34,134 nt of DNA from Desulfurococcales archaeon ex4484_204 (GTDB taxonomy: Archaea > Thermoproteota > Thermoprotei_A > Sulfolobales > NBVN01): positions 1 through 34,134 of the forward strand of contig NJEF01000005.1 in assembly GCA_002255065.1 (NCBI GenBank). The letters are read 5' to 3'. Positions 2,511-23,931 of this stretch are shown here, one piece after another. Position 1 is the first letter of the stretch, and each line of letters opens with the position of its first letter. The notes beneath the pieces are model-generated. The model made no database searches. It was not told where the DNA came from and saw only the letters and a list, made by a program, of their open reading frames with translations. Both the position numbers and the translations under genes were made by a program.

Positions 2511-3188
2511 ATGAAGTACAGTCTAGGGGTATATACTGAGGCAACCCTAAGTGAGGGAGTAGCTACGAGCCTTGGTCTTACTGCGAGGATTTACTGGTTG
2601 GATGTATTCTATTCCCCTGATACCTTCTTTGAGGAAGAACTCAGGGAATACGCTTACATGGGTGCTACGGAGAAAAACATAGAAAGAGTAGTTAAGGGTA
2701 GATTGTCTAGCAGGCTTCCCGAAGTATTCCTTACGGATAGGCATGACAGGGTATACGGCTTCGGAGCCTACGCATTAAAGAATGAGGCTCTAAAACCGGC
2801 TGTAACGTCTTGGAGAAGCAACGTAAAGGCCAAGCTACCAAAGAATATGAGAAAACATATACTCCTCGAAGCATCACGTGCTAGGGAGTTCCTAGTAGTG
2901 CTTAGTGGTTCGCTTTTATCACCTCTTCTCATATCCAAGCTGGAGAAAATATTCAAGAGAAAGATCCGAAACACGAGGTTCTATAAAGGCACAATTATCA
3001 ACGATACAGTGAGGTACATCGATGAGAAACTAAGAGAAAATACCACCACACCTAGTACACGATATAAGGAAAGTACTCACAGAAGGAAAACTGCCACGGG
3101 GAAGGTGACGAGAAGAAATCATAAAAGCAATGCAGGTATAGATTCTCTTATTTCTTGTTTATTAATAGATTTCACTCTTCTTCCGTAG
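2511..3188 (+). CDS. hypothetical protein (island-borne; Lys/Arg/Thr-rich C-terminal third)
   Basis: This is a 225-aa ORF with no motif I recognise and no obvious TATA box or SD upstream. It may itself be a decaying gene. Confidence 0.3.
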   Translation: MKYSLGVYTEATLSEGVATSLGLTARIYWLDVFYSPDTFFEEELREYAYMGATEKNIERVVKGRLSSRLPEVFLTDRHDRVYGFGAYALKNEALKPAVTSWRSNVKAKLPKNMRKHILLEASRAREFLVVLSGSLLSPLLISKLEKIFKRKIRNTRFYKGTIINDTVRYIDEKLRENTTTPSTRYKESTHRRKTATGKVTRRNHKSNAGIDSLISCLLIDFTLLP

Positions 3189-3237
3189 AGTTTCCTGCTT
3201 TAAAATTGATGTTTATAGAAGGCGGGAGTAGGAGGAG

Positions 3238-3815
3238 ATGAGTGTTCATAGTAATAGTGTGACAGGAATTTATAAATTTGAGCAACTTAGCCAAGCTTCT
3301 AATCTTGTTAGCTCCATTGGAGCCCGACAAGAGGGGTGGGTCTTCAACGATTATACATGTAATATAAATATTAGTATACCGCGATGGTTGTCGAAGTTAT
3401 TGGGGTATGGCGATGAAGGTGTTACTAGGTATATTGTGTTAAAGCTGAGTTTGAGGCCGGATTGGAATTGTTTGGTTTCATTGCCTTGGCGTGTTGTTAG
3501 GTCTCGTTCTGCTCCTTCGCTTGTCCCTGATAATGTATTCGTAAAGTTTATCAAATAAGAGGTTGTGGGTAAGTTTAAGTTTAATCGTTGGTTGGAGGTT
3601 GTTGCTACTCCTCGTGCTGGTAAGAGTGCTGATGTTATTCAAGAGGTTATTCGATATTATTGAGAATGACCTGGCGAATTATACTGTTCTTGTTGTTGCA
3701 CCTAATCAACGTTTAGCTGAAACGTTGTATAGATATGCTATTGGTGCTACTGCACGTTTGTATAGAGAGTTGCGTAGAAACAGAATTAAGATCTCTACAC
3801 CGCCACCGCACGTCC
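3238..3815 (+). pseudogene. Broken P-loop NTPase gene (terminase-large-subunit-like or SF2-helicase-like N-terminus)
   Basis: ORF 3238-3558 continues in the same frame across a TAA (3556-3558) into EVVGKFKFNRWLEVVATPRAGKSADVIQEVIRYY, with Walker A at about 3607-3627. That frame then stops at TGA 3661-3663. The sequence resumes in the +1 frame as ENDLANYTVLVVAPNQRLAETLYRY, which resembles motif Ia. An AGGAGG lies just before ATG 3238. The hydrophobic start of track ORF 3563 (MWVSLSLIVGWRLLLLL) is an out-of-frame reading of this Walker A segment. Confidence 0.45.
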
Positions 3816-4489
3816 CTGGGCACGTTCTAGATAAGGTAGTGTTCTCTATTCAGGACGACATGTATAGGGCTCTGTTCTGTTTAATGCGTATAACAGGTGC
3901 TAGAATAGAAGAAATAGTGTTACTTGGAAGAGAGAATAATAAACGATGAAGATTCGATATACGTTAGATTTGACGTAACCAAGGTATGTCAAGAGAAGTA
4001 CCGCTGAACCGGTCTGGATTTAAACAACACTTGAGAATGTTCCTTACACGGTATTATCACCAACATCCTAAAGCCAGCGATCCTAGTGCCTGGCTCTTCC
4101 CGAGAACTACGGATTTAAGTAGACCTGTGCCCAGGAACTTCATGTATCTAATGTTTAAGAAAGCCGCGAGGAGTCTAGCAAAGTCAGATCCCGAAATTCA
4201 GAAGTACTTAGAGCATATATACCCGCATTAGTTTAGGCATACACGCGCTTATGAATTAGTGTTTCAGAACTAGAATTTTCGGTGGATAGTGTACTACTTT
4301 GGCTAGAGGAAGGTAGATGTGGTGTTACGATACATGCAGGCATTTGAGTTAAAGCAGGTATACAGGATGTTAAATGGTAATGGGAATAGTAATGGAAAGG
4401 TTAAGACCTGTCTTAGGTGCTACGCTCTAATACCAGAAAATGCAAGACTGGTTCACAGGTACTGTAATAGATCAAGACGCAGAAAATAA
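3800..4489 (+). pseudogene. Tyrosine recombinase (integrase) catalytic domain, inactivated by multiple in-frame stop codons
   Basis: A single reading frame gives ALFCLMRITGARIEEIVLL (box I Arg), then EVPLN, then HIYPH*FRHTRAYELV (box II H-x-x-R-H-T), then VVLRYMQ (candidate Tyr nucleophile), ending at TAA 4487-4489. In-frame stops occur at 3947 (TGA), 3965 (TAG), 3971 (TGA), 4229 (TAG), 4271 (TAG) and 4304 (TAG). Confidence 0.7.
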
Positions 4490-4821
4490 ACAAGATCCAT
4501 TTTAATTTTCATAATAAAATAAATGATAAGCATGCCTTAGAAAAACATTAGTTTTTACTTCTCCCCAACCAGTAAAAATTGCTCTTCTCCTCAACCCTAT
4601 CAACAGGTTATGGTCTCACGCATGGGGTGCTGTGATGGTAGGGCTGGAAGCCCAATAGCAAAGATGAGTACGGTGCGATTTAGCATAGGTTTAAAACGTT
4701 GTGTCATTGTTTGTTAATAAATTTGTGTTGCCAGCTCCTAAAAATATTAAACCGATTCTTCCCGTGTCCTTCCGGAGGTTAACGGAATAGGGGTGTAGGT
4801 GGAGAGAACAAACAATTATTT

Positions 4822-4834
4822 GCTAATTATAGAA
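4822..4834 (+). promoter_or_regulatory. Candidate TATA box for the 4851-5756 two-gene unit (leaderless-type spacing)
   Basis: The sequence ctaattatagaa is centred about 24-26 nt upstream of the GTG at 4851. That spacing is typical between an archaeal TATA box and the start of a leaderless transcript. Confidence 0.3.
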
Positions 4835-4850
4835 TACAAAAACTTTAAGA

Positions 4851-5072
4851 GTGAACAAAGAAGGTGTCTTAAAGTTAGGTTTATGCGAGATGATTAAATA
4901 TAGTATAGCAGGAATGGGGATGAGGAGTCCTCTAGACGTGCTTAAAGAAGCCAACAGAAGGAAGAGATCGGCTAAAATAAAGACTCCACTTGTTTTGATA
5001 AGATCTCTTAATAAGGAGAGAAGAAGGATAGTTGCTACCCAAAGAATTCTAGAACGTGTTGTAGGTAGGTGA
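4851..5072 (+). CDS. small, strongly basic hypothetical protein (73 aa), co-oriented 6 nt upstream of the proteasome-like gene
   Basis: The ORF starts at GTG and contains an Arg/Lys-rich segment (EANRRKRSAKIKT...NKERRRIVATQRILERVVGR). It ends 6 nt before ATG 5079, and a GGTGA SD-like motif for the downstream gene lies inside its 3' end. No family was recognised. An internal start (MIKYS) is possible. Confidence 0.4.
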   Translation: MNKEGVLKLGLCEMIKYSIAGMGMRSPLDVLKEANRRKRSAKIKTPLVLIRSLNKERRRIVATQRILERVVGR

Positions 5073-5078
5073 TGTGCA

Positions 5079-5756
5079 ATGACCTTAATAATAGGTATTA
5101 GAAGTAAAGATGGTGTAGTTTTGGGGAGTGATAGAAAGGTTCTTCGAAGTGGCGAAGTTGAGTACTCTAATAAAATTTTCATTGTTAATAATGTTGCCTT
5201 GGCCGTTGAGGGCCTTACAGGGATCAGAGATGATTCTCTCTACTTGCTAAATGCAGAGTTACAGCGTGGGCGAGGGGTAGATACTCTTTATGAGATGAAG
5301 GTTATTGCTGAGGACATTATAGCTGAGCTTACTGAGAGATACAGAGACCGCGTTAGGGAGGAGATGCCTATAGGAGTATTAATGGCTGGAAGGGAGTATC
5401 TCGTTAATGGTAAAGCATTACTATACTATATACACGGTATGGGGTATGGCGAGGCAGTAGACTTTTTATGTACTGGTCATGGAGGTCATTACGCCACCTC
5501 ATTGGCTAAGTTCCTACCCAAGAAAGACCATGATGTTATTGAGAATGCTAAGAGAGTAGCCTTTATAATATCTTGGGTAACTGAAGACGTCGACGTAACT
5601 GTTGGTGGTGATCCAGACGTGGTTATTGTACAAGATAGCGATAAACCAGCTAGTGAACCTATAGAGCAGTTGGATGCAAACTTAGTAAATAACATGAAAA
5701 TTAAGGCTAAGGAAGTTAAGAAGAGGTTTGCCGATATAATCTTTGGTTCAACGTAA
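5079..5756 (+). CDS. Proteasome beta-subunit / HslV-like Ntn-hydrolase, no propeptide (Thr directly after initiator Met)
   Basis: MTLIIGIRSKDGVVLGSDRKV aligns with the mature N-terminus of archaeal beta subunits (TTTVGITLKDAVIMATERRV). NKIFIVNNVALAVEGLTGIRDDSLYLLNAEL aligns with the Lys33 region ([33 protein letters not shown]). IGVLMAG aligns with VQLLVGG. CTGHGGHYATSLA aligns with the GSGS/GSGG motif. DVDVTVGGDPDVVIV aligns with the C-terminal strand. A GGTGA lies 6 nt upstream of the ATG. Confidence 0.8.
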   Translation: MTLIIGIRSKDGVVLGSDRKVLRSGEVEYSNKIFIVNNVALAVEGLTGIRDDSLYLLNAELQRGRGVDTLYEMKVIAEDIIAELTERYRDRVREEMPIGVLMAGREYLVNGKALLYYIHGMGYGEAVDFLCTGHGGHYATSLAKFLPKKDHDVIENAKRVAFIISWVTEDVDVTVGGDPDVVIVQDSDKPASEPIEQLDANLVNNMKIKAKEVKKRFADIIFGST

Positions 5757-6032
5757 TTTAATCAAAGTAAAAGTTTATGTTAAGTTCCAACCGCGAAATC
5801 TCGATGATTCTAGGGAAGTGTTTTATTCCTGAGGGTGATGATATTTTCTTGGTGAACCCCATGTCCGTGCTTGTTCACCAATTCTCCAAATATCTGTCTC
5901 AACTGAATACTTAACTAGCGATTGATTTAGAATGGAGATCCCCGCAGAACACACAGAATACTGCTAATTATCCTCATAAACACCTAATAGCTAATAACCT
6001 CTTAAAGTAATTAGCGAGTTCACCGACCTTCA

Positions 6033-6831: not shown

Positions 6832-7674
6832 ATGAAGAAGAGGCTGGGTAACCTATTAATAGCGCTATTTAGACGCTCAGCAGGCCTGATACAGGTAGTA
6901 GCGAAGCCCATATATAAGGTATATGAGGTTTGGTTATGGTCCCAGATATGCGACGGACCTGTGCCGAGACATGTCGCTATAATCCCTGACGGGAACAGGA
7001 GGTGGGCTAGGAGTCTAGGGTTAAACCCCATTATTGGCCATAATGTAGGCTATGAGAAGCTTAAAGAGGTACTCGACTGGCTGTGGGATCTAGGGATAAA
7101 GGTGGTCACGGTGTACGCTATGTCCTACGAAAACTGCACTAAACGCTCAGAGGACGAGGTGAACAACCTATTTCACCTACTCAAGAGGGGCATTGAGGAG
7201 ATTAAAGAGAAGGGTGAGATAGATAAAAGGAGGATTAGGATCAAGTTCTTCGGTAGATTCGAGCTGGTTCCTAAGGACGTCCTCAACATGGTTAAGGAGG
7301 TAGAGGAGTACAGTAGTAAGTACAGCGAGCGCTTCCTCAACATAGCTATATGCTACGGCGGTAGGCAGGACATAATCAACGCGGTGAAGAGAATAGCTAG
7401 GGACATCGCTACTGGTAAGGCATCTGTTAATGATATAGATGAAGGCATATTCAGGAAGTACTTAAGTACCTCCCACTTACTAAGCTCAGGGCTTGAAGAA
7501 CCTGACCTCGTTATAAGGACTTCCGGGGAGCTTAGACTAAGCAACTTCCTGTTGTGGCAGATAGCATACAGCGAGCTATACTTCTGTGACGTGCTATGGC
7601 CTGAATTCAGGAAGATAGATCTGTGGAGAGCTATAAGGTCCTACCAGAAGAGGGAGAGACGCTTTGGAAGGTAG
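6832..7674 (+). CDS. uppS: Undecaprenyl/di-trans,poly-cis-prenyl diphosphate synthase (cis-prenyltransferase)
   Basis: PRHVAIIPDGNRRWA, VTVYAMSYENCTKR, IRTSGELRLSNFLLWQIAYSELYF and the C-terminal RERRFG are hallmark UppS motifs. Confidence 0.9.
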   Translation: MKKRLGNLLIALFRRSAGLIQVVAKPIYKVYEVWLWSQICDGPVPRHVAIIPDGNRRWARSLGLNPIIGHNVGYEKLKEVLDWLWDLGIKVVTVYAMSYENCTKRSEDEVNNLFHLLKRGIEEIKEKGEIDKRRIRIKFFGRFELVPKDVLNMVKEVEEYSSKYSERFLNIAICYGGRQDIINAVKRIARDIATGKASVNDIDEGIFRKYLSTSHLLSSGLEEPDLVIRTSGELRLSNFLLWQIAYSELYFCDVLWPEFRKIDLWRAIRSYQKRERRFGR

Positions 7675-7675
7675 T

Positions 7676-8566
7676 TTACTCAGCCTCCCCATCTGAGTAG
7701 AGAACCTTAAGCTCGTCTAGCGAGAGCCTCATACCCTTCCTAAGCTTATCCTGGGCTATAGCTCTCTTTCTCTCCCTAATCCTCTCCTCCATAGCCTTCC
7801 TCTTACGCAGCCTGACCTCCCTTAACTCCTCCTGAAGGCCCCTCAACCTCTTCAGCAACGCATTGATCTCCTCCGCCACCGATACTAGCTTCTCGGCATT
7901 ACTCCTTATGTCCCTGCTCTTACACTCTATCTCCTTTGATAACCCGTCAGCTACCTCCTTTAACCTACGCATCCTATCCCTAAAGGCACTGATCTTGCTA
8001 CTTACCTCCCCTATCTCCTTGTTAAGGTCGCTGAGCTCTACTAAGTAACTCTTAAGTGATGCTTTAAGCTCCTTAGCCTCCTCCCTAAGCCTCCTCACCT
8101 CAATAGCCCTATCTAAGACCTTCTCCAACCTCGCGATCTCCCTTACCAACCTATTCTCCTCGTCTAGAGGTAAAGACTCAGTTATTATCCTCCACTCAAG
8201 GCTATCTATCCTAGCCTTTATCCTAGCGATAGACGCGGTCCTAATAGATGATAGCTCGTTAATTACCTCCCTCTTAGAAAACAGCTCCCTCTTCACCTCC
8301 CCTATCGACTTAATAACCCCCCTCCTTTTCTGAATAAGCTCATCACGTCTACTCCTTAAGCTGCCCAGCTCCTCCCTAAGCCTCCTTAGCTCAGCCCTTA
8401 CATCCCTTATTTTACCAATTAACTCACTACGCTCTGCCTTAAGCCTCCTAATGCTCTCCACGATTAGCAGGCGCTCTTCCTTCAAATTCTTAAGACGGCT
8501 CCTTAACTCATCGATCTCCCTGAGTATGGAGTCTTCGTCAGCGCTTCCTGACATATACCTACCCAC
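7676..8566 (-). CDS. Archaeal coiled-coil protein (COG1340-like), function unknown
   Basis: The 296-aa sequence is almost entirely heptad-like and rich in Glu, Arg, Lys and Leu (LKEERLLIVESIRRLKAERSELIGKIRDVRAELRRLREEL...). The COG1340 assignment is from memory of that family's composition, not from a search. Confidence 0.6.
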   Translation of the reverse strand: MGRYMSGSADEDSILREIDELRSRLKNLKEERLLIVESIRRLKAERSELIGKIRDVRAELRRLREELGSLRSRRDELIQKRRGVIKSIGEVKRELFSKREVINELSSIRTASIARIKARIDSLEWRIITESLPLDEENRLVREIARLEKVLDRAIEVRRLREEAKELKASLKSYLVELSDLNKEIGEVSSKISAFRDRMRRLKEVADGLSKEIECKSRDIRSNAEKLVSVAEEINALLKRLRGLQEELREVRLRKRKAMEERIRERKRAIAQDKLRKGMRLSLDELKVLYSDGEAE

Positions 8567-15218: not shown

Positions 15219-16691
15219 CTACGGTGATCCCGTGCCAGTTATATTTAGGTGTAAATCATGTAAGGGCATTATATACGTCTTTAGAAAGGTCGGGCAGGAC
15301 TGCTTCGGCCTCCCGTAGAGCACCTCGCCTTTACTTACCCCTAATGGGATCACCTTCTTAACTAATTCATCTATGCTCCTAGCTACGAACACTAGCTTCA
15401 CGTGCTTACCCTCTACCCTAGACCTATTACTAAGTAAGGCGTCTGTAGGGGACGTATACCTTACCGGCTTTACTACGTACAGCCGACCATCATCGCCTAC
15501 CCAGGGACCTATAGAGGTGGGTGAATCCACATACTTGTAGATAAAGGCTAGGGAGTTAGGCCCCATATGCGGGTAGGGACCTATGTGTATCCTGCTTACA
15601 GAGGTGTTGCAATTAAGGACGTCGAGGAATATCATAGCAATGGGTCCCTCATTACTCCAAGCTCTAACGTCTATAACCTTGAAATCGCTCTCCTTTAAAA
15701 CATTGACACACTTTCTCCCCACTCTCCTTAACTCCCCCCACAGGACGTCCGGTGCTACACCATGTGCTACGCGATAGACAGCTATAACAGGGCACCTACC
15801 CGACTTTTTAACAGCATTACTCAGTTCGTCACTACTAAAGGCCTCTCTTCGAGGAAAGAAGTAGTCCCTTGAGGGATGCGTAAGGAAGAGCTTAGCTGCA
15901 AGTACTGCTGTCTCGAAGGATTTAAGGGATACCGCCGCCGCAGCATTTCTCCTAAGATCTACGGGGTCTGGGACTACTAAAGGTGTAACTCCGTGTAATT
16001 TATTATCTATCTCAGTGCCGTTAGTATCCTCTATAATGACTAACTGGGGGGGTTTCCAGGAAGCCATACTCTTAATGGAGTTAATAAAGGTGCCATATTT
16101 TATTATGAGAAGTTCGCAGAGGTATCCTGAGAAACCCGAGGTCTTGATCTCAGCTCCGTAAACACCTACCCCTTTAAGGAATTTCTTTAGTAACCTAACC
16201 TCGTCCTTCTGTTCATCCTTAAGCCTACTAACTACGTACTTTGTATGAAATGGAGTCCTATCAACAGCCGTCTTTATATCATTAATGTTAGTAGCCCAGT
16301 ATGCTGGCACTATATCCGCACTATAAATCCTCCACGAAACATTGATGTATGGGTGTGAAGAGTACCGTAACTTAGCATTAAAACCTTTCATCGTAAGAGC
16401 ATTCCTTAGGGGTCTAATAATATTCGTCTTTATCCAGCTATTGGTGATATCATCCTTCTTTACTAGTATAAAAATATCGAGGTCTGTCTCCCCCCCAATA
16501 TTAGTATCCTTAGCTAGGGAGCCCTCGAGTTCAACCATGTATTCGTAGTCTATGCTTAGAGTATTCATAATAATATCCCTGATCCTATTGTACAGTGAAT
16601 ACGCCTCCTGGTTTTCACGCAGTCTAGGTCTTAGCAAGAGCTTTAGCTCCCCAAGCAGTTCGTTCAGCGTGCTTCCACTACTCACACTCAT
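15219..16691 (-). CDS. cca: CCA-adding enzyme (archaeal class I tRNA nucleotidyltransferase)
   Basis: The catalytic motif is LEGSLAKDTNIGGETDLDIFIL. DRTPFHTKYV and GFSGYLCELLIIKYG are also present. These are signatures of archaeal class I CCA enzymes. The start overlaps the thpR stop as ATGA (16688-16691). Confidence 0.9.
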   Translation of the reverse strand: MSVSSGSTLNELLGELKLLLRPRLRENQEAYSLYNRIRDIIMNTLSIDYEYMVELEGSLAKDTNIGGETDLDIFILVKKDDITNSWIKTNIIRPLRNALTMKGFNAKLRYSSHPYINVSWRIYSADIVPAYWATNINDIKTAVDRTPFHTKYVVSRLKDEQKDEVRLLKKFLKGVGVYGAEIKTSGFSGYLCELLIIKYGTFINSIKSMASWKPPQLVIIEDTNGTEIDNKLHGVTPLVVPDPVDLRRNAAAAVSLKSFETAVLAAKLFLTHPSRDYFFPRREAFSSDELSNAVKKSGRCPVIAVYRVAHGVAPDVLWGELRRVGRKCVNVLKESDFKVIDVRAWSNEGPIAMIFLDVLNCNTSVSRIHIGPYPHMGPNSLAFIYKYVDSPTSIGPWVGDDGRLYVVKPVRYTSPTDALLSNRSRVEGKHVKLVFVARSIDELVKKVIPLGVSKGEVLYGRPKQSCPTFLKTYIMPLHDLHLNITGTGSP

Positions 16692-17788: not shown

Positions 17789-18025
17789 GTGGGTAGGGCT
17801 GGTAACGAGTTAGAGGAGTTGGAAGTAGCCATACTGAGGTTGCTAGAAACCTTAGAGGTAGGTAGCTTTAAGGATTTAGCGGAGGGGCTTGAGAGAGAAG
17901 GCTACGTTATAAATAGGTTAGTACTTAGAAAGGTTATCTCTGACATGTTAAGAAGTGGTGTAATCGTTAAGGATAAGCATCCGTCTAAACCTAGGTTTAT
18001 CTACAGAGCAGCATCTAAGCCCTAG
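17789..18025 (+). CDS. small winged-helix (wHTH) DNA-binding protein
   Basis: The start is GTG, about 23 nt downstream of ctataaag (leaderless-type spacing). The pattern LEVAILRLLETLEVGSFKDLAEGL...LVLRKVISDMLRSGVIV is typical of ArsR/MarR-like wHTH proteins. The 3' end overlaps the PCNA 3' end by 11 nt (convergent). Confidence 0.5.
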   Translation: MGRAGNELEELEVAILRLLETLEVGSFKDLAEGLEREGYVINRLVLRKVISDMLRSGVIVKDKHPSKPRFIYRAASKP

Positions 18026-18767
18026 GTGCTATCCAAATATTTATTCTCGACCCATCCTCCATGTTCATTGAGATCTTCAGGGGTAGCCCCGAGCCGAACT
18101 CAAGTGTGATGAGGTCAGTTACATCGAATGCTGGAACGACCGCTCTAAGCATATCTACATCGTATTTACTTGAAGCTGTTGACTCCTTAGATTCAAGGCT
18201 ATAGAGGGGTTTATCCATTGTTAAAATTTCCTTAAACATCCTGCCCTCAGATTTCACCGTAGCCTCTATAAAGCCTTCCTTATACGTAAGCTCTAGTTCC
18301 TCACCAATAATCTTCGAATCCCTTATAAGCTTCTTAAGATCCTCACTAGCTATTTGAAGTCTCACCGGTAAGTCTAGCTGAAGAGACTGAATGAGCTCCC
18401 TACCAGCCTCACTCAACTCCACCTCAAAAAATCTCTCAGTGCCCGTCCTCGCATTCACCAACACCACCCTCATAGTCCTTGAACCCTCCTCGTACACCAG
18501 CGTAACGCTATCCCTTTTAGTCGCCCTTCTAGCTACCTTAAGGAACTGATCCCTAGACGCCGTTATGGAGGTTTCAGAGGTGCAGTCAAAGGACTCAAAA
18601 GCGCTCCGCGGCATTACTACCTCTATCAAGATGTTCTTATCGGGACTAAGAGACCTTATTAAGAACTCATCTAAAGAAACCTTAATTGGAACCTCATCAA
18701 GGGGTTTTAAAACACCGAGCATCATCTTCTTGAAAACACTTCCATCAGGATACGTAACCCTGAACAC
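18015..18767 (-). CDS. pcn: DNA polymerase sliding clamp (PCNA)
   Basis: The gene is 250 aa. The N-terminus (VTYPDGSVFKKMMLGVLKPLDEVPIKVSLDEFLIRSLSPDKNILIEVVMPRSAFESFDC) and the two-domain repeat pattern are typical of crenarchaeal PCNA subunits. Confidence 0.85.
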   Translation of the reverse strand: MFRVTYPDGSVFKKMMLGVLKPLDEVPIKVSLDEFLIRSLSPDKNILIEVVMPRSAFESFDCTSETSITASRDQFLKVARRATKRDSVTLVYEEGSRTMRVVLVNARTGTERFFEVELSEAGRELIQSLQLDLPVRLQIASEDLKKLIRDSKIIGEELELTYKEGFIEATVKSEGRMFKEILTMDKPLYSLESKESTASSKYDVDMLRAVVPAFDVTDLITLEFGSGLPLKISMNMEDGSRINIWIAPRA

Positions 18768-18832: not shown

Positions 18833-19228
18833 ATGCTTAGTAAAGTAGGGTGCAGGATAGTGACGTTAAAGATAACTAAAGACTTCACGGGGTACATACA
18901 CGTGGAAGGAGATATTGACGTGTTGGTAAGGTTCCTTAAGTGCCTTAGCAAAAGCTTTGGTGAAAGCGATGACATTAGCGACACTTTAAGGATCCTTAAT
19001 AACTTTGACGTGTTTTACTCGATGCTTAAAAGAAAATTTAAAGATTACATAGCACCTAGAAAGAGCGAGCGTGACCTAATCCATGGAAAAGTTGTGGTAG
19101 ATAAGGTAAAGCTTATCAGGAATGCTGAAAGGAGGGCTATCATAGTGCTCGATAAGAGGGTGAGTCAGAGAGCTATAATCAACTTGCTTAAGGAGACGAA
19201 CTTAGAGTTCGTGGCCTCCAATATATGA
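18833..19228 (+). CDS. hypothetical protein (131 aa)
   Basis: The ORF is divergent from PCNA, with an A/T-rich upstream region (tattttaaacattaatttaag). No motif was recognised. Confidence 0.4.
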   Translation: MLSKVGCRIVTLKITKDFTGYIHVEGDIDVLVRFLKCLSKSFGESDDISDTLRILNNFDVFYSMLKRKFKDYIAPRKSERDLIHGKVVVDKVKLIRNAERRAIIVLDKRVSQRAIINLLKETNLEFVASNI

Positions 19229-19229
19229 G

Positions 19230-19517
19230 TCATCTCTTCCTTTTCCTCTTAGACCTCCTCTCCTTAACTCTAGGAAGGCTTCTCAACTTACTTATCTCGG
19301 TACTTGCCTCCTCAACACCTATAGCACCGCTCGCTGCTAGTATGAGGAGGTCGCTAACCTTTAACATAGTCTCAAGCTGACCTACGTTTATTGTAGCTGT
19401 CACAGCCTCCTCAACCTCTGTCGGTATGTACTCCTCCGGTTTCTCCTCAGACTCCTCCTTAACCTCCTCAAGAACCTCCTCAGCTACCTCCTTTTCCTCA
19501 GCTACCTCCTCACGCAA
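19230..19517 (-). CDS. small protein with acidic N-terminus and Arg/Lys C-terminal tail; possible RNA polymerase subunit Rpo13
   Basis: The sequence has an acidic N-terminus (MREEVAEEKEVAEEVLEEVKEESEEKPEE), a helical core (GQLETMLKVSDLL...SGAIGVEEASTEISKL) and a basic tail (KERRSKRKRKR). The layout and the G-x-I-x-V-E/D-E-A core resemble Sulfolobus Rpo13 as I remember it. It lies 12 nt downstream of the membrane HerA-type ATPase on the same strand. Confidence 0.5.
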   Translation of the reverse strand: MREEVAEEKEVAEEVLEEVKEESEEKPEEYIPTEVEEAVTATINVGQLETMLKVSDLLILAASGAIGVEEASTEISKLRSLPRVKERRSKRKRKR

Positions 19518-19529
19518 AAAGATCCCGCC

Positions 19530-21332
19530 TTACACGTAATACCTATTTAAAATATAAGTTTTAATGTGGTAAACAACGTTATTACCTCTAAGCCAGGCCA
19601 GCGCCTCAAAGTTGGGAAGCCTTGGTAGCTCCTCACGGATAAGCCTAAACATGCTTTGCACACCACCAGATACAACCTTAGCTATGTAGGAAGCACCGGT
19701 AGCTTCAGCTAGGGAGAAGGAGATAACTACCTTAGCATTCGTTAAAGCAGAAGTGTCTAGGCGTAAGGGATCCTGCGATATCACGACAACAGCAACACCA
19801 AACTTCCTCCCCTCACACAGCATCCTAGCTAAGGTCGACCTCCTACCCTTACCTAAATACCTATGGGCCTCCTCAACAACTAGTAGTACGGTACCTCCAT
19901 ACCTTTTAACAGCGTAGAAGAGCATTTCAAGGGCTGTCTCAACGTACACCCTAGATAAGGACTCGCTCTCAATAACGCTTAAATCGATTACTGAGACACC
20001 GCTAATGAGGTCTTCAGGCCTCACCCAGTAGGTTACCTCCCTCTTAAACCTAAGCATCCTTATGTATGGAATCAACGATCTATATACGTCCCTAGCGAAC
20101 TCAAGCGAATCCTTAGCCCCCGAACTAGAACCTACTATAGCTTTTGTAAGAGCCTCCTCTAGGCTATCTAACGTTGGGTTATCAACTCTCCTATAAAGCT
20201 CTAGCACTATCTTCTGGAGAGCTGATCTCTGAATGTTACCGAGCCTGAATGACGATGCTATAAGGTCTGCGACTTCCTTAGCCCTAACACTAGGCTCCTT
20301 ATCAAGTCTGTCAAGAATATTCACGGGGTTCTCAACAGGGGTGAAGACCTTAGCCCCGCTAATACCTCTGTACTCACCATGTGTATCGATGATTAGGATA
20401 GCCCCACCTAGCTTCTCAGCGACTTGTTTAACTATAGCCTTACCTAACATGGACTTCCCGCTCCCTGACGCCCCAACAATAACTATGTGGTTGTTCTCAC
20501 CGTGCTTGAAAGGAACCTCTAGGACCTTTCCTGGCGCTTTACGCCACCTGCCTTTACTAAGGACCTTAATAACTCTACCTAACACTACCCCCTCCCCGGC
20601 TGCTACGGGCTCCCCTCCCCTAACGTCTATTAGGGTGAGGGCTAGGGGTAGTGAGAGAGGTATGAATGTTAGCACAGCGGACCACACGTAGACAAGCCCT
20701 GGACTTGATAAAGCTCTATCAGCGTTAGTTAAGGCGATTAAGAAGAAGGTAGCAACTATGGTGAATACGTAGAGGATCGTGGCGGAGTCATTAAGAGGTT
20801 TTACGTTGATTAAGGGTAGCACTACGTGTAGTAGCCCGAGTTTAAGCGTTAATGGGATGCCTAAGTACTTAAGGCCGTAGTACAGCAATGATGTATTTAT
20901 TATAGTAAAGCCCAGCAAGCCTGCTAGGGCTATGAACACGTTGCTACTTAAGCTCCTGTAGCTCTTCCCGATACCACGCGGTATTCTCAGGGACTTAAAG
21001 AATGAGGACCCTATCAGGAACGTTATAGAGTATACTAGGAGGTACAGCGTGAATAGCTCACGGATAAACTCCCTACTCATGCTCCTTGTATCTAGAACGA
21101 CTGCTAGGCTAGCTATGAATATTAGCTCAGCTACGGCGATCCTAATACTACCAGATCTTCCACCCACATACCCAGCAATCCCCACTAAGACGTAAGTGAG
21201 TATGGTGCCGAGAGCTAGCGTTGGTAGGCCTTCATGGGCTAACTGAACTATAAGAATCGCCACTAAGGCGTTAACTACGGTCAGCGCTAACGATACAGCT
21301 AGCTCTCCCTTCTTAGCCGTATCTCCGTACAT
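19530..21332 (-). CDS. Polytopic membrane protein fused to a HerA/FtsK-type (DUF87-like) P-loop ATPase
   Basis: The N-terminal region of about 240 aa has roughly 7-8 hydrophobic helices. It is followed by Walker A (HIVIVGASGSGKS), IIDTHGEY, Walker B (TVLLVVEEAHRYL) and CEGRKFGVAVVVISQDP. These match the HerA/VirB4-type ATPase motif order. Confidence 0.85.
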   Translation of the reverse strand: MYGDTAKKGELAVSLALTVVNALVAILIVQLAHEGLPTLALGTILTYVLVGIAGYVGGRSGSIRIAVAELIFIASLAVVLDTRSMSREFIRELFTLYLLVYSITFLIGSSFFKSLRIPRGIGKSYRSLSSNVFIALAGLLGFTIINTSLLYYGLKYLGIPLTLKLGLLHVVLPLINVKPLNDSATILYVFTIVATFFLIALTNADRALSSPGLVYVWSAVLTFIPLSLPLALTLIDVRGGEPVAAGEGVVLGRVIKVLSKGRWRKAPGKVLEVPFKHGENNHIVIVGASGSGKSMLGKAIVKQVAEKLGGAILIIDTHGEYRGISGAKVFTPVENPVNILDRLDKEPSVRAKEVADLIASSFRLGNIQRSALQKIVLELYRRVDNPTLDSLEEALTKAIVGSSSGAKDSLEFARDVYRSLIPYIRMLRFKREVTYWVRPEDLISGVSVIDLSVIESESLSRVYVETALEMLFYAVKRYGGTVLLVVEEAHRYLGKGRRSTLARMLCEGRKFGVAVVVISQDPLRLDTSALTNAKVVISFSLAEATGASYIAKVVSGGVQSMFRLIREELPRLPNFEALAWLRGNNVVYHIKTYILNRYYV

Positions 21333-21394
21333 TACCTTTCAATATAAAATTACGGTATTAAAGCTGTAAAAATTACTTGTCTTAGTGATACCTG
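21333..21394. promoter_or_regulatory. 62-bp divergent promoter region between the membrane ATPase and the Lhr-type helicase
   Basis: The spacer is A/T-rich, with TATA-like elements on both strands: aatataaaat (21341-21350), gtattaaag (21356-21364) and gtaaaaatta (21366-21375). These lie about 25 nt from the two start codons (ATG 21332 on the minus strand, GTG 21395 on the plus strand). Confidence 0.4.
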
Positions 21395-23143
21395 GTGGGA
21401 AGGGTAAGACGACTTAGTGCTGACGTGGTCGAGATACTGAGGAACTTAGGGTTCAGCACCCTCACCGAGATTCAGAGGAGAGCTATCCCTAAGGTCCTAG
21501 GAGGTCGCCACGTCATAATTATAGCACCCACAGGGAGCGGGAAGACAGAGGCTGCTTTCCTACCTGTAGTTAATGAGATCACCTGTAATAGATTAAAGCC
21601 TATAGCTGCTCTTTACATAACACCTCTAAGAGCTCTTAATAGGGACATATTTAGAAGGCTTAAAGAATTCGCTAGTAAGTTGAATATTCAGGTAGAGGTG
21701 AGGCATGGAGATACCACGCAGAGGAGGCGAAGGCTGATCAGGGAGAAGCCTCCCCACGTCTTAATAACCACCCCTGAAACTCTCTCGCTTATCTTGGTGG
21801 ATAAGGCCCTAAGAACTCACCTTAGAAATGTAAGGTACGTAATTATTGATGAATTCCACGATGTGCTATCTAGTAAGAGGGGCTCACACCTCCTCGCAGA
21901 TCTTGAGAGGCTTAGGAGGGTTGCAAGAAGCTTTCAACGCATAGCCCTCTCAGCAAGCATAGGGGACGTTAACCTAGTTAAGGAGGCCTTAGCACCTTCT
22001 TCAGTAGTTGATGAGGCAGTGCTAAGTACTGTTAGGAAAGCTAACATAGTTGTTAAAGCTCCTGGACTCTATGGAGGTAAGTTTCTTGATAAGGTCGATC
22101 TAATATCGTCCTTAATCAGGGACTACGGTAGTACGATAATATTCACTAATACACGTAACGAGGCAGAATGGCTCGGCTCTAAGATCTTAACAAAGGGTTT
22201 TAACGTCTCCGTACATCATGGAAGCCTCTCAAGAGTTGAGAGAGAGGAGGTTGAAAGGAGGTTGAGAAGTGGGAAGGTAAGTGCTGTTATAGCCACCTCA
22301 AGCCTTGAGTTGGGGATCGATGTAGGTCACGTTAAGGGGGTAATTCAGGTATCGTCGCCTAGACAAGCTATTAAACTCCTTCAGAGGGTTGGTAGGTCGA
22401 TGCATAGAGTTGGACTGGAGGCTAGGGGGGTTATAGTAACTGACCCTATGGTCGACGATATCTTAGAGTCCCTAGTTATCGCGAGAAGGGCTATAAGTGG
22501 GGACCTAGAAGGTCTTACCCCGTACTTGAAGCCTCTTGATGTACTGGCCCACGTAGTTGTGGGCATGGGGTTGGAGGGCGCGTCGTTTAAGGATGTGTAT
22601 GAGACATTAACACGAAGTTACCCCTTTAGGGACCTTAGTGAGGAAGACTTAAGTAAGGTGGTCGAGCTGCTCGTTAAGCTCGGGTATGTAAGGTTTAATA
22701 AGGGCTTAATCTCAACTACGGGGAGGGGAAGGCTTTATTATTTAAGGAGGACAATGATAGTTGACACATCCCGGTACTCCGTAATAGATGCCGTCAGCAG
22801 GACCTACTTAGGTGACTTAGACGAAGAGTTCGTTGCTACATCGCTAAGCGTCGACTCACTCATAGTGCTTGCTGGAAGGGTCTGGAGGGTGCTGAGTATA
22901 GATGGAGATGCCTTTAAGGTGTTCGTTGAGCCCGCCTCTGAGGAGGAGGCGTTCATACCTACATGGCTTGGCGAGACAATACCTGTTGAGTACCTAGTAG
23001 CGAGGGAGGTTTGTGCTTTAAGGAGGTTGATAGCTGAGAACCGTATACCTAACCACTACCTTAAGCTGGTAGAGAGGAACACCTTATCTTACGCGATAGA
23101 TGCCATAAGTAAGCATGTGAAGAAGGGCTTCCATATTCCGTAG
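21395..23143 (+). CDS. Lhr-type SF2 DEAD/DEAH-box helicase, core (RecA1-RecA2-WH-domain 4)
   Basis: The motifs are Q-like (LTEIQRRAIP), motif I (IIAPTGSGKTEAA), Ia (LYITPLRALNRD), II (IIDEFH), III (SAS), V-VI (ATSSLELGIDVG...QRVGRSMH), the WH segment (LDVLAHVVVG) and the domain 4 pattern (GDLDEEFV...LAGRVWRVLSID...IPTWLGE). The start is GTG. Confidence 0.85.
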   Translation: MGRVRRLSADVVEILRNLGFSTLTEIQRRAIPKVLGGRHVIIIAPTGSGKTEAAFLPVVNEITCNRLKPIAALYITPLRALNRDIFRRLKEFASKLNIQVEVRHGDTTQRRRRLIREKPPHVLITTPETLSLILVDKALRTHLRNVRYVIIDEFHDVLSSKRGSHLLADLERLRRVARSFQRIALSASIGDVNLVKEALAPSSVVDEAVLSTVRKANIVVKAPGLYGGKFLDKVDLISSLIRDYGSTIIFTNTRNEAEWLGSKILTKGFNVSVHHGSLSRVEREEVERRLRSGKVSAVIATSSLELGIDVGHVKGVIQVSSPRQAIKLLQRVGRSMHRVGLEARGVIVTDPMVDDILESLVIARRAISGDLEGLTPYLKPLDVLAHVVVGMGLEGASFKDVYETLTRSYPFRDLSEEDLSKVVELLVKLGYVRFNKGLISTTGRGRLYYLRRTMIVDTSRYSVIDAVSRTYLGDLDEEFVATSLSVDSLIVLAGRVWRVLSIDGDAFKVFVEPASEEEAFIPTWLGETIPVEYLVAREVCALRRLIAENRIPNHYLKLVERNTLSYAIDAISKHVKKGFHIP

Positions 23144-23163
23144 ACGTTAATGAATTAGCTAAC

Positions 23164-23931
23164 ATGGTTGTTCAAGTACTTCGCGACCTCACCTCCTCTA
23201 GCAAGGCGGACTTGGTGTTAAGTATTGAGGACTCATTAAAAGGCTCACCGCTGCATGGGTACGTAGCCTATAGGGTTCTAAGCAGGCTAGGAATAATACC
23301 TAAGAACGCGCCCATGAACATTATTAAGACTATCATTAGGAGATATGCTCAGGAAGAGGTCATTCGTAAAGAGATTATAAACGAACTAGTTACTAAGTAC
23401 CTTGACGTAAGCGCCTTACTGAGCTACTTAAGGGGTATCGCCTCAGGTAGGGTGGGGGTTAGGACTATCATTACCTCTACGCCATCACCGCTAGCTGAGG
23501 AGGGCGCTAAGCCTCCTGGGGGCGGGAGGGTAAGGTTTAGTGCCTTACCTAAAAGCGTAATAGCTGCACTTATGAAGAAGAGGCTATACTCAAGGGAGGT
23601 AGATCTCGTGTGTATGGTCTGTAAGCACCTATGGAGGGCTAGGATAGATGAGTTACCGGATAAGGTTAGGTGCCCTAAATGCGTGAGCGCTGGTAGGAAC
23701 TACAGGTTCGTTCTTAATGAAGATGAGAAGGAGATTTTCGAGAAGCTCTTAGATACAGCGAAGCTTACCCTGGTATATGGCAGGAAAGCTATTATAGCCC
23801 TTAACGCACATGGTGTGGGCCCCGCTTCAGCGAAGAGAGTATTGAATATTGAAGATGAGGAGGAGTTCCTCTACACGCTCTATCAGCTTGAGAGACAGTA
23901 CTTAAGGACGAGGAGGTTCTGGAGGGACTGA
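23164..23931 (+). CDS. Lhr-type helicase C-terminal portion (zinc-ribbon-containing), encoded as a separate ORF in another frame
   Basis: This 255-aa ORF follows the helicase core directly and contains a CxxC...CxxC ribbon (CMVCKHLW...RCPKCVS). Its frame is already open from 23113 and overlaps the end of the core ORF. That fits a single frameshift or a natural split. Confidence 0.65.
   Translation: MVVQVLRDLTSSSKADLVLSIEDSLKGSPLHGYVAYRVLSRLGIIPKNAPMNIIKTIIRRYAQEEVIRKEIINELVTKYLDVSALLSYLRGIASGRVGVRTIITSTPSPLAEEGAKPPGGGRVRFSALPKSVIAALMKKRLYSREVDLVCMVCKHLWRARIDELPDKVRCPKCVSAGRNYRFVLNEDEKEIFEKLLDTAKLTLVYGRKAIIALNAHGVGPASAKRVLNIEDEEEFLYTLYQLERQYLRTRRFWRD

Follow-up and report, generated by a model that had tools for sequence, protein, structure and literature searches.

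Which task is served by a membrane protein with a HerA-type motor in archaea that divide without FtsK? This question is raised by a 34,134-nucleotide (nt) stretch of DNA from Desulfurococcales archaeon ex4484_204 (contig NJEF01000005.1; the whole stretch is referred to as the window), which encodes a membrane ATPase of 600 amino acids (aa) on its minus strand. Membrane-anchored motors of the FtsK/HerA type move DNA across membranes or along them when cells divide, conjugate, or sporulate, and also when archaea import DNA. The Sulfolobales and Desulfurococcales exchange chromosomal DNA, and their division proceeds without FtsK. The family of the window ATPase is best read as a third lineage of membrane-anchored HerA-type ATPases beside CedB and CedD. 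Tentatively, with a probability of roughly 0.4, the protein may be a HerA-type DNA translocase, hexameric and embedded in the membrane, that plays an accessory part in DNA exchange or repair; its oligomeric state, substrate, and role are what we infer.

Anatomy and family of the membrane ATPase

The ATPase open reading frame (ORF) is divided into a membrane domain with transmembrane (TM) helices, a linker, and a motor core:
19530-21332, minus strand: polytopic-membrane HerA-clade ATPase, 600 aa, ATG start (ORF; arCOG00285 type, orthologue of S. islandicus M164_1755)
20613-21332, minus strand: N-terminal membrane domain, residues 1-240, about 8 TM helices (hydropathy, AlphaFold2 models)
20511-20591, minus strand: beta-hairpin linker, residues 248-274, from the last TM helix to the ATPase core (AlphaFold2 secondary structure)
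19548-20507, minus strand: HerA-type RecA-like ATPase core, residues ~276-595 (invariant residues, Foldseek, PDB sequence match)

The initial annotation described about seven to eight N-terminal hydrophobic helices fused to a HerA/DUF87 motor, and this description holds. The motifs HIVIVGASGSGKS, TVLLVVEEAHRYL, and CEGRKFGVAVVVISQDP are found in ORF 19530-21332 (-), as are all four of the hydrophobic stretches that it quoted. A Kyte-Doolittle scan gives 8 hydrophobic segments within residues 8-238. The full-length AlphaFold2 model, built on a 51-sequence alignment, has a mean predicted local distance difference test (pLDDT) score of 87.4 and long helices at residues 8-33, 36-60, 63-81, 87-108, 128-156, 161-176, 182-209, and 211-235. 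The membrane domain modelled alone has a mean pLDDT of 81, and across both models 7-8 long helices occupy residues 8-235. P229 of the membrane domain is invariant in the relatives (51/51), while N21 and E69 are frequent. A test for internal duplication of the membrane domain detected no repeat. The linker is a hairpin of two strands, residues 248-259 and 262-274, with G252 present in 50/51 aligned sequences, and the alpha/beta core follows directly. The ATPase has no Pfam match to the HAS-barrel PF09378, and the AlphaFold2 model shows only the one beta-hairpin at that place.

The motor carries a full set of conserved positions, from Walker A and Walker B to an arginine finger and a sensor residue. 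Walker A K293, D316/H318/E320 of the D-x-H-G-E motif, Walker B E488, R509/K510, Q520, and N532 do not vary among the 51 aligned sequences, and Walker B position 487 is D or E throughout. Because the catalytic residues are invariant in 51 relatives, the ATPase is presumably catalytically competent. It matches Pfam PF01935 (DUF87) at 3e-14, with 54 bits against a gathering threshold of 23.2 bits. A Foldseek search with the core returns 7es4 (the C-domain of DndH) and 4d2i (HerA of S. solfataricus) at the top, with E ~5e-13 and probability 1.00, and 4d2i is also found by PDB sequence search at 8e-14. By both sequence and fold, the ATPase belongs to the FtsK-HerA superfamily, HerA clade.

Homologues of the full architecture are numerous. 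A word-index search with the single protein found one true relative, P0002, with 30% identity and the same architecture, and the same kind of search with a 51-sequence profile found nothing new. An exhaustive profile hidden Markov model search returned 75 representatives with E <= 1e-30. Among the best 150 representatives at 50% identity, about 100 combine 3-8 predicted TM segments at the N-terminus with a Walker A motif further on, at residue ~200-330. Where sources are named, the homologues are entered as "ATP-binding protein" and come from Desulfurococcaceae or Thermogladius. The exhaustive search also lists proteins such as P0058 and P0071, of 520-600 aa, without TM helices, with Walker A at ~50-95 and a C-terminal extension of ~200 aa. 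On the ATPase part of the family profile, P0058 equals the score of the Sulfolobus orthologue, while P0071 is somewhat lower at 173 bits.

The family also includes a protein of the model Sulfolobales. At the syntenic position, S. islandicus encodes a polytopic ATPase of 572 aa with 27% identity to the window protein (E 3e-30). Against the family profile it obtains 198 bits, with an alignment that reaches into the TM domain, compared with 138 bits for CedD and 90-107 bits for HerA. With similarity above that of the paralogues and a conserved position, the window ATPase can be regarded as orthologous to M164_1755 (arCOG00285). In the transposon sequencing study of S. islandicus M.16.4, M164_1755 is listed under arCOG00285 as "HerA helicase / ATPase AAA" and is non-essential (PMC6249222). 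Of its neighbours, M164_1753 (pcna1) is essential, while M164_1754 (rpo13) and M164_1756 (Lhr-like helicase) are non-essential (PMC6249222). SSO0394, Saci_0814, and SiRe_1605 are the helicase aLhr1 (PMC10003305, PMC8301817). Since aLhr1 is SSO0394/Saci_0814 and Rpo13 is SSO0396/Saci_0816 in the locus-tag numbering, the Sulfolobus orthologues of the ATPase would be, from their position, SSO0395 and Saci_0815. The searchable literature contains no mention of SSO0395, Saci_0815, the S. islandicus locus tags of the ATPase, or arCOG00285. The window ATPase is thus the Desulfurococcales member of arCOG00285, a single-copy and vertically inherited family of Sulfolobales and Desulfurococcales. The initial annotation had overstated its uniqueness: the family is widespread and already catalogued, yet functionally unstudied.

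Among curated NCBIfam models, the ATPase is nearest to the Ced motors, with CedD and CedB as the best curated relatives, which supports the Ced comparison made at the outset. Its best match is CedD (NF053655) with 97.7 bits against a cut-off of 600, aligned over residues 281-541 only. CedB (NF041017) gives 58.5 bits against a cut-off of 700, and the HerA models NF040819 and NF040937 give 61.9 bits (cut-off 970) and 60.1 bits (cut-off 800). Across the family, CedD is the best curated match in 51/51 members (best E 5e-33), CedB matches 41/51 members (best E 1.4e-31), and VirB4, TraC, and CD1110-type conjugation ATPases are matched up to E ~1e-19. A true CedD used as control, P0142, scores 610 bits on the CedD model, has 2 TM helices, and aligns to the family profile over the ATPase part only (138 bits). 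Because a true CedD has 2 TM helices and aligns over the ATPase only, the family forms a lineage separate from CedD and CedB. Membership in CedD is ruled out by a score far below the cut-off and a different architecture, and membership in CedB by 58.5 versus 700 bits.

The membrane domain has no such relatives. Residues 1-245 have no Pfam match at E <= 10 and no NCBIfam match at E <= 1, where the NCBIfam library searched includes the models for CedA (NF041796), CedE (NF053657), and CedA1. As a positive control, the CedA/CedE-type models detect the CedA-like proteins of two related loci, L034 and L035, at 1e-36 to 1e-51. The AlphaFold2 model of the TM region alone was compared with the PDB by Foldseek and gave nothing meaningful, with a best E of 0.087 and a TM-score of 0.18 to G-protein-coupled receptors. 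Against BFVD there was no fold match, with a best E of 0.74. The PDB includes the VirB6 structures 7o3v and 7o41, which are cited in PMC11868833. The membrane domain is therefore set apart from CedA and CedE by sequence models, and from VirB6 by the PDB fold search. Since it matches no CedA/CedE model and no solved or viral fold, descent from a CedA/VirB6 channel is unsupported.

The genes around the ATPase

The neighbouring features of the window are as follows:
19230-19517, minus strand: rpo13, RNA polymerase subunit 13, 95 aa, TTG start (orthologue profile, hhalign, synteny)
18833-19228, plus strand: p131, conserved 131-aa protein, convergent with rpo13 (tblastn matches in 16 further loci)
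18015-18767, minus strand: PCNA subunit, conserved downstream neighbour (Pfam PCNA_N, synteny)
21333-21394, no strand: 62-nt divergent intergenic region, common to the ATPase-rpo13 unit and aLhr1 (sequence)
21395-23143, plus strand: aLhr1 N-terminal fragment of 582 aa with DEAD, Helicase_C, and WH_Lhr (Pfam, NCBIfam), GTG start
23164-23931, plus strand: aLhr1 C-terminal fragment of 255 aa with the end of DEAD_assoc (6e-7) and a Cys4 zinc ribbon (CMVC...CPKC)

The cluster, in which aLhr1 is divergent from ATPase-rpo13-(p131)-PCNA, is shared by Desulfurococcales and Sulfolobales and sits in the core chromosome. The locus search was run with a 13-sequence alignment. Fifteen loci of uncultured Desulfurococcales have the order helix-turn-helix protein-SerRS-aLhr1, then divergently ATPase-rpo13-(p131 convergent)-PCNA, and further on LigT-CCA. 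Across these loci, identity is 70-76% for SerRS and only 27-37% for the ATPase, which indicates that the ATPase is fast-evolving. The gene rpo13 lies 3' of the ATPase in 21/22 loci, at a spacing of 0-90 nt, and aLhr1 lies upstream of the ATPase in 18/21. To our knowledge, this near-invariable linkage of rpo13 and the ATPase has not been remarked on before. In L028, L029 (Thermogladius), and L034, the order ATPase-rpo13-p131-PCNA is kept, and aLhr1 is not upstream. In L003-L006 and L017, the ATPase-rpo13 pair is kept with other downstream genes; aLhr1 is upstream in L003-L006, and L017 is without upstream sequence. In complete S. islandicus genomes, aLhr1 (912 aa) is divergent from the DUF87 ATPase (572 aa), rpo13, and PCNA1, with gaps of 0 nt between ATPase and rpo13 and 4 nt between rpo13 and PCNA1. 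The supposed conservation of the ATPase, small protein, and Lhr arrangement was thus borne out in ~20 other loci, out to Saccharolobus, and is not due to chance, except that Lhr is absent from L028, L029, and L034. The initial annotation had also named findings that would speak against its reading, namely a membrane domain without homologues or TM prediction, a lack of synteny, and a clear place in a known unrelated family; none of these was found.

The small gene downstream of the ATPase is rpo13, as several indirect but consistent lines of sequence evidence indicate. The features first noted for its 95-aa product and position were all recovered, namely an acidic N-terminus, a tail ending in KRKRKR, and a start 12 nt past the stop codon of the ATPase gene. 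The start codon is TTG, the acidic N-terminus is disordered, and a helix-turn-helix core lies between it and the basic C-terminal tail. Similar ORFs with an acidic N-terminus, helical core, and basic tail occur 3' of the ATPase in nearly every related locus. On its own, the window protein has no PF12136 (RNA_pol_Rpo13) match, while the syntenic small ORF of L028 matches PF12136 at 7e-8 and that of L035 matches faintly. When a profile of 11 syntenic orthologues was searched against the PDB (E <= 10), five of the seven matches, including the top four, were Rpo13 chains (2waq_Q, 2y0s_J, 2wb1_J, 36rp_Y, which has the same sequence in 7ok0, and 3hkz_Y), with a best E of 0.025. The helix-turn-helix core aligns with the Rpo13 core of S. 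shibatae at E 5e-5 in hhalign. A profile search with the small ORFs retrieves PF12136 proteins including S. islandicus Rpo13, although its Sulfolobus matches arise partly by construction, because the profile included a Sulfolobus fragment. The gene also occupies the same cluster position as the experimentally defined Rpo13 of S. islandicus (PMC2675907). Rpo13 is described as an ordered helix-turn-helix core between flexible N- and C-termini, of which the C-terminus is rich in lysine and close to the DNA (Korkhin et al. 2009, PMC2675907). Its orthologues are reported in Sulfolobales and Desulfurococcales (SSO0396, Saci_0816, Msed_0052, and Smar_1004), and its presence as an RNA polymerase subunit is shown for the Sulfolobus and Saccharolobus enzymes only (PMC2675907). 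The reading of the small charged protein as a dedicated partner of the ATPase is accordingly corrected to an RNA polymerase subunit.

The helicase called Lhr-type at first is aLhr1. Its published definition includes Domain 4 and a C-terminal Cys-rich zinc finger (PMC8301817). The DEAD, Helicase_C, WH_Lhr, Domain 4 (DEAD_assoc), and Cys-rich zinc finger parts are all found in the window. The assignment therefore stands by domains, but not as one intact gene, as deletions relative to L002 leave two ORFs here. L002 is a contig of the same metagenome-assembled genome, 99.97-100% identical, in which aLhr1 is intact as one ORF of 931 aa. Compared with L002, the window lacks ~190 nt and 69 nt, both within aLhr1, and ~198 nt towards the 3' end of the gene for the CCA-adding enzyme. 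The deletion sites are at ~23124-23127, 23683/23684, and ~15312-15314 of the window, versus 8020-8205, 7391-7459, and 16022-16216 of L002. The gene is split in two because the ~190-nt loss shifts the frame, while the 69-nt loss is in frame. Together, the two losses take away some of Domain 4 and the sequence directly after the zinc ribbon. The junctions have only 3-4 nt in common, without flanking repeats. These deletions may be population variants, a pseudogene, or assembly artefacts. aLhr1 has been implicated in DNA repair and in SSB-ssDNA (single-stranded DNA) binding (PMC8301817, PMC10003305).

The 62-bp A/T-rich spacer towards the divergent helicase was located correctly. Positions 21333-21394 have ~73% A+T versus ~54% window-wide, and TATA-like runs are seen in the spacer by eye only. 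The corresponding spacer measures 39 nt in S. islandicus and 68 nt in L001. The aLhr1 promoter of S. islandicus LAL14/1 contains AGTATTA, a box of the cell-cycle repressor aCcr1, and the helicase gene is down-regulated there along with cdvA, escrt-III-2, and segAB (PMC9976892). The 39-nt aLhr1/ATPase spacer of S. islandicus (L030 4243-4281) has TAATACT, the reverse complement of this box. The window spacer has TAATACC, which has one mismatch to the 7-mer, could easily arise by chance, and is not used as evidence.

Between rpo13 and PCNA lies p131, which belongs to a family of ~125-131 aa with the motif NFDEFY...KFKDYIAPP...DRR and is always convergent at this place in Desulfurococcales (for example L001 2396-2776, L028 2845-3234, L029 8250-8624, L034 7200-7577, and L035 7121-7504). 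Searches of Pfam, NCBIfam, and PDB sequences gave no match for p131, and S. islandicus lacks the gene at this position. A 78-aa ORF at 17789-18025 (+) overlaps the 3' end of the opposite-strand PCNA gene by 11 nt and recurs at the same position in L013, L015, and L016.

The flanking genes in the window are all housekeeping genes, and the region is syntenic across genomes, which rules out a mobile-element reading. The canonical HerA partners mre11, rad50, and nurA are missing within the window, as originally stated. Elsewhere in the window, at 2511-3949, three consecutive ORFs (225, 106, and 128 aa) without a Pfam match adjoin a proteasome-subunit gene. They lie at the edge of and within a stretch at 3001-6000 with ~40% G+C, about 7-8 points below the rest of the window.

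Two related loci have Ced genes close to the cluster. Beside it in L035, and ~3 kb away in L034, are cedA-like genes and a bona fide cedA1 (129 bits against a cut-off of 100). This proximity is taken as a lead and not as proof of a common system. At L035 218-2017 and L034 808-2475, a cedA1 of 88-89 aa has as its partner a CedA-like protein that is unusually long (462-482 aa); only its first ~190 residues are CedA-like, and it continues with a ~270-aa extension and a C-terminal TM segment. The L035 pair directly adjoins aLhr1, whereas the L034 pair lies ~3 kb upstream of the ATPase in a locus without aLhr1.

Possible roles of the ATPase

As a DNA translocase, the ATPase would form a hexameric ring as HerA, FtsK, and CedD do, and its very short linker would hold this ring flat on the cytoplasmic face of the membrane. 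ATP hydrolysis could then move DNA through or along a channel lined by 6 x 8 TM helices. The role would most likely be in intercellular DNA exchange or repair, and would be accessory because the S. islandicus orthologue is non-essential. In S. islandicus, deletion of cedA, cedB, or cedD leaves DNA export undiminished (PMC11868833), so the motor of export there would be a different one; in Thermus, HerA-like proteins drive DNA donation (PMC11868833). The closeness of the ATPase core to CedD and CedB, the cedA genes near the cluster in L034 and L035, and the implication of aLhr1 in DNA repair also count in favour of such a role. The ATPase could plausibly be a constitutively expressed donor-side or auxiliary pump of the Sulfolobales. 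Its family would be the third conserved membrane HerA-type ATPase in these DNA-exchanging archaea. Co-expression with rpo13 and PCNA most simply reflects conserved operon structure rather than physical partnership. A more specific version of this reading is rather unlikely: arCOG00285 might be the donor-side or otherwise missing DNA pump of Ups/Ced exchange, expressed constitutively with rpo13 and PCNA and served by the divergent aLhr1 helicase, which would unwind the DNA and feed it in, with Rpo13 perhaps moonlighting as a DNA-binding adaptor.

Several observations weigh against a translocase in exchange or repair. The membrane domain lacks similarity to CedA and CedE in sequence models and to VirB6 in the fold search. 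The ATPase gene is not among the ultraviolet (UV)/TFB3-regulon genes that led to CedD and UpsC (PMC11823120), and a damage-induced role is thus not indicated. The linkage to cedA genes concerns 2 of ~22 loci only and is absent by tblastn from the window, L036, and the other loci. The locus counts are non-independent, because many of them belong to uncultured Desulfurococcales that are related and have kept their gene order over >12 kb. The core-genome setting with PCNA, rpo13, and SerRS suits a housekeeping or cell-cycle role equally well. Neither the Ced link nor the cell-cycle link of the cluster decides the matter.

Such a cell-cycle role would make the ATPase an analogue of FtsK/SpoIIIE, that is, a membrane-anchored hexameric pump for double-stranded DNA. 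In crenarchaea without FtsK, such a pump would clear the Cdv/ESCRT division plane of chromosomal DNA, segregate that DNA away from it, or resolve DNA that is trapped. This explanation, the main rival, is unlikely on balance, but it accounts for the polytopic N-terminal domain joined to an FtsK-HerA superfamily motor and for a single-copy, vertically inherited gene that adjoins PCNA and rpo13 on the core chromosome in two orders. The aCcr1 box in the S. islandicus spacer between the ATPase gene and aLhr1, and the joint down-regulation of aLhr1 with cdvA, escrt-III-2, and segAB (PMC9976892), are also consistent with it. However, Saci_0814 is entered among the non-cyclic genes, the 7-mer in the window spacer carries a mismatch, and the core is of the HerA clade, with neither a Pfam FtsK_SpoIIIE match nor a sequence-reading gamma domain. 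The orthologue is non-essential as well, which is weak evidence here because the FtsK motor is also dispensable. A role without DNA is somewhat less probable still. The protein would be a mechano-ATPase, VirB4-like or otherwise membrane-associated, that pulls membrane proteins or pilins of the CedA1 type out of the membrane or inserts them, or moves another substrate, with the 8-TM domain as anchor or platform. VirB4 powers pilus biogenesis and not DNA passage (PMC11868833), and the family matches to VirB4, TraC, and CD1110-type ATPases, the cedA1 pilin genes near the cluster in L034 and L035, and an often-conserved intramembrane Glu/Arg position (E69) without an obviously basic channel signature all suit such a role. 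Yet the VirB4-type N-terminal domain is absent, the nearest structures and sequences are the DNA-translocating HerA, DndH, and CedD-type ATPases, and the neighbours aLhr1, PCNA, and Rpo13 are all nucleic-acid proteins.

The tight linkage with rpo13 could also mean that the two products act together, with Rpo13, or a free pool of it, as a DNA-binding adaptor that couples RNA polymerase or DNA to the membrane pump. The pair stays intact despite rearranged flanks in L003-L006, L017, L028, L029, and L034, rpo13 follows the ATPase immediately in 21/22 loci of both orders, and both genes are non-essential. Rpo13 is reported only from the Sulfolobales and Desulfurococcales, the same two orders in which the ATPase family is found, and its basic tail binds DNA (PMC2675907). 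Even so, this module is quite improbable: Rpo13 is a stoichiometric RNA polymerase subunit in crystal and cryo-EM structures, and unrelated housekeeping genes are commonly mixed in operons. The initial annotation had further proposed a fused Ced-like importer, with a CedA/VirB6-like channel joined to a CedB-like motor, or an anti-phage defence module. Both are largely refuted and now very improbable. The resemblance of the ATPase domain to CedD and CedB would fit an importer, but the TM domain matches neither CedA NF041796 nor CedE NF053657, Foldseek finds no VirB6, and S. islandicus has separate CedA, CedB, and CedD besides this gene (PMC11868833). For defence, the PADLOC models of HerA, mad8, and DndH match the ATPase domain with 87, 72, and 64 bits. 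These matches are generic ATPase-domain similarity, as no partner genes are nearby (no Sir2, DUF4297, NurA, Dnd, or mobile-element genes) and the locus lies in the syntenic core chromosome. A translocase in DNA exchange or repair can be set against these explanations in S. islandicus, which is genetically tractable: the orthologue is non-essential there, and a deletion strain is usable in the existing donor/recipient and cell-cycle assays.

Comparison with known systems

CedD: CedD (Saci_0667/SiRe_1715), which translocates DNA in the Ced importer of crenarchaea, resembles the window ATPase in being a membrane-anchored HerA-clade ATPase of the same archaeal orders, non-essential, and chromosomal. 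In contrast, CedD has 1-2 TM helices and a VirB4-like N-terminal domain (PMC11868833), whereas in the window ATPase 8 TM helices occupy the N-terminus and a globular domain is missing there. CedD is encoded at a separate locus in S. islandicus and S. acidocaldarius (PMC11868833, PMC11823120). It is UV-inducible, whereas the window ATPase gene is outside the UV-TFB3 list of PMC11823120.

CedB, VirB4/TraC, and VirD4/TraG: CedB (Saci_0748) and VirB4/TraC share with the window ATPase the FtsK-HerA superfamily, membrane association, and similarity of the ATPase core, and they serve in DNA transfer. The window ATPase differs by lacking the VirB4-type N-terminal domain and by having another membrane domain. 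A VirD4/TraG coupling protein is ruled out, as the TrwB_AAD_bind match covers only residues 273-321 (the P-loop; 49/387 profile positions) and does not extend across the nucleotide-binding and all-alpha domains.

Canonical HerA: The DxHGEY and EGRKFG-type motifs and DUF87 are common to HerA and the window ATPase. Canonical HerA, a helicase of double-strand break repair, is soluble, has a HAS-barrel, and is encoded in a herA-mre11-rad50-nurA operon, while the window ATPase has ~8 TM helices and none of these. Without a HAS-barrel, with no nurA, mre11, or rad50 in the window, and with scores below the HerA cut-offs, assignment to canonical HerA is ruled out.

FtsK/SpoIIIE: The design principle is the same: a polytopic membrane domain at the N-terminus is joined to a motor of one superfamily, a hexameric DNA motor in FtsK and SpoIIIE and presumably also in the window ATPase. 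FtsK and SpoIIIE are of another clade and have 4-5 TM helices, a long linker, and a gamma domain, whereas the window ATPase has 8 TM helices and neither of the latter two. Membership in this family is ruled out, since the ATPase has no Pfam match to PF01580 (FtsK_SpoIIIE) at E <= 0.01 and no gamma (winged-helix) domain. It ends ~60 residues past the motor core.

arCOG00285: The locus of M164_1755 differs from the window in the lack of the 131-aa convergent gene, in PCNA1 following directly after rpo13, and in high sequence divergence. M164_1755 nevertheless has the same architecture as the window ATPase and the same neighbours, aLhr1, rpo13, and PCNA1.

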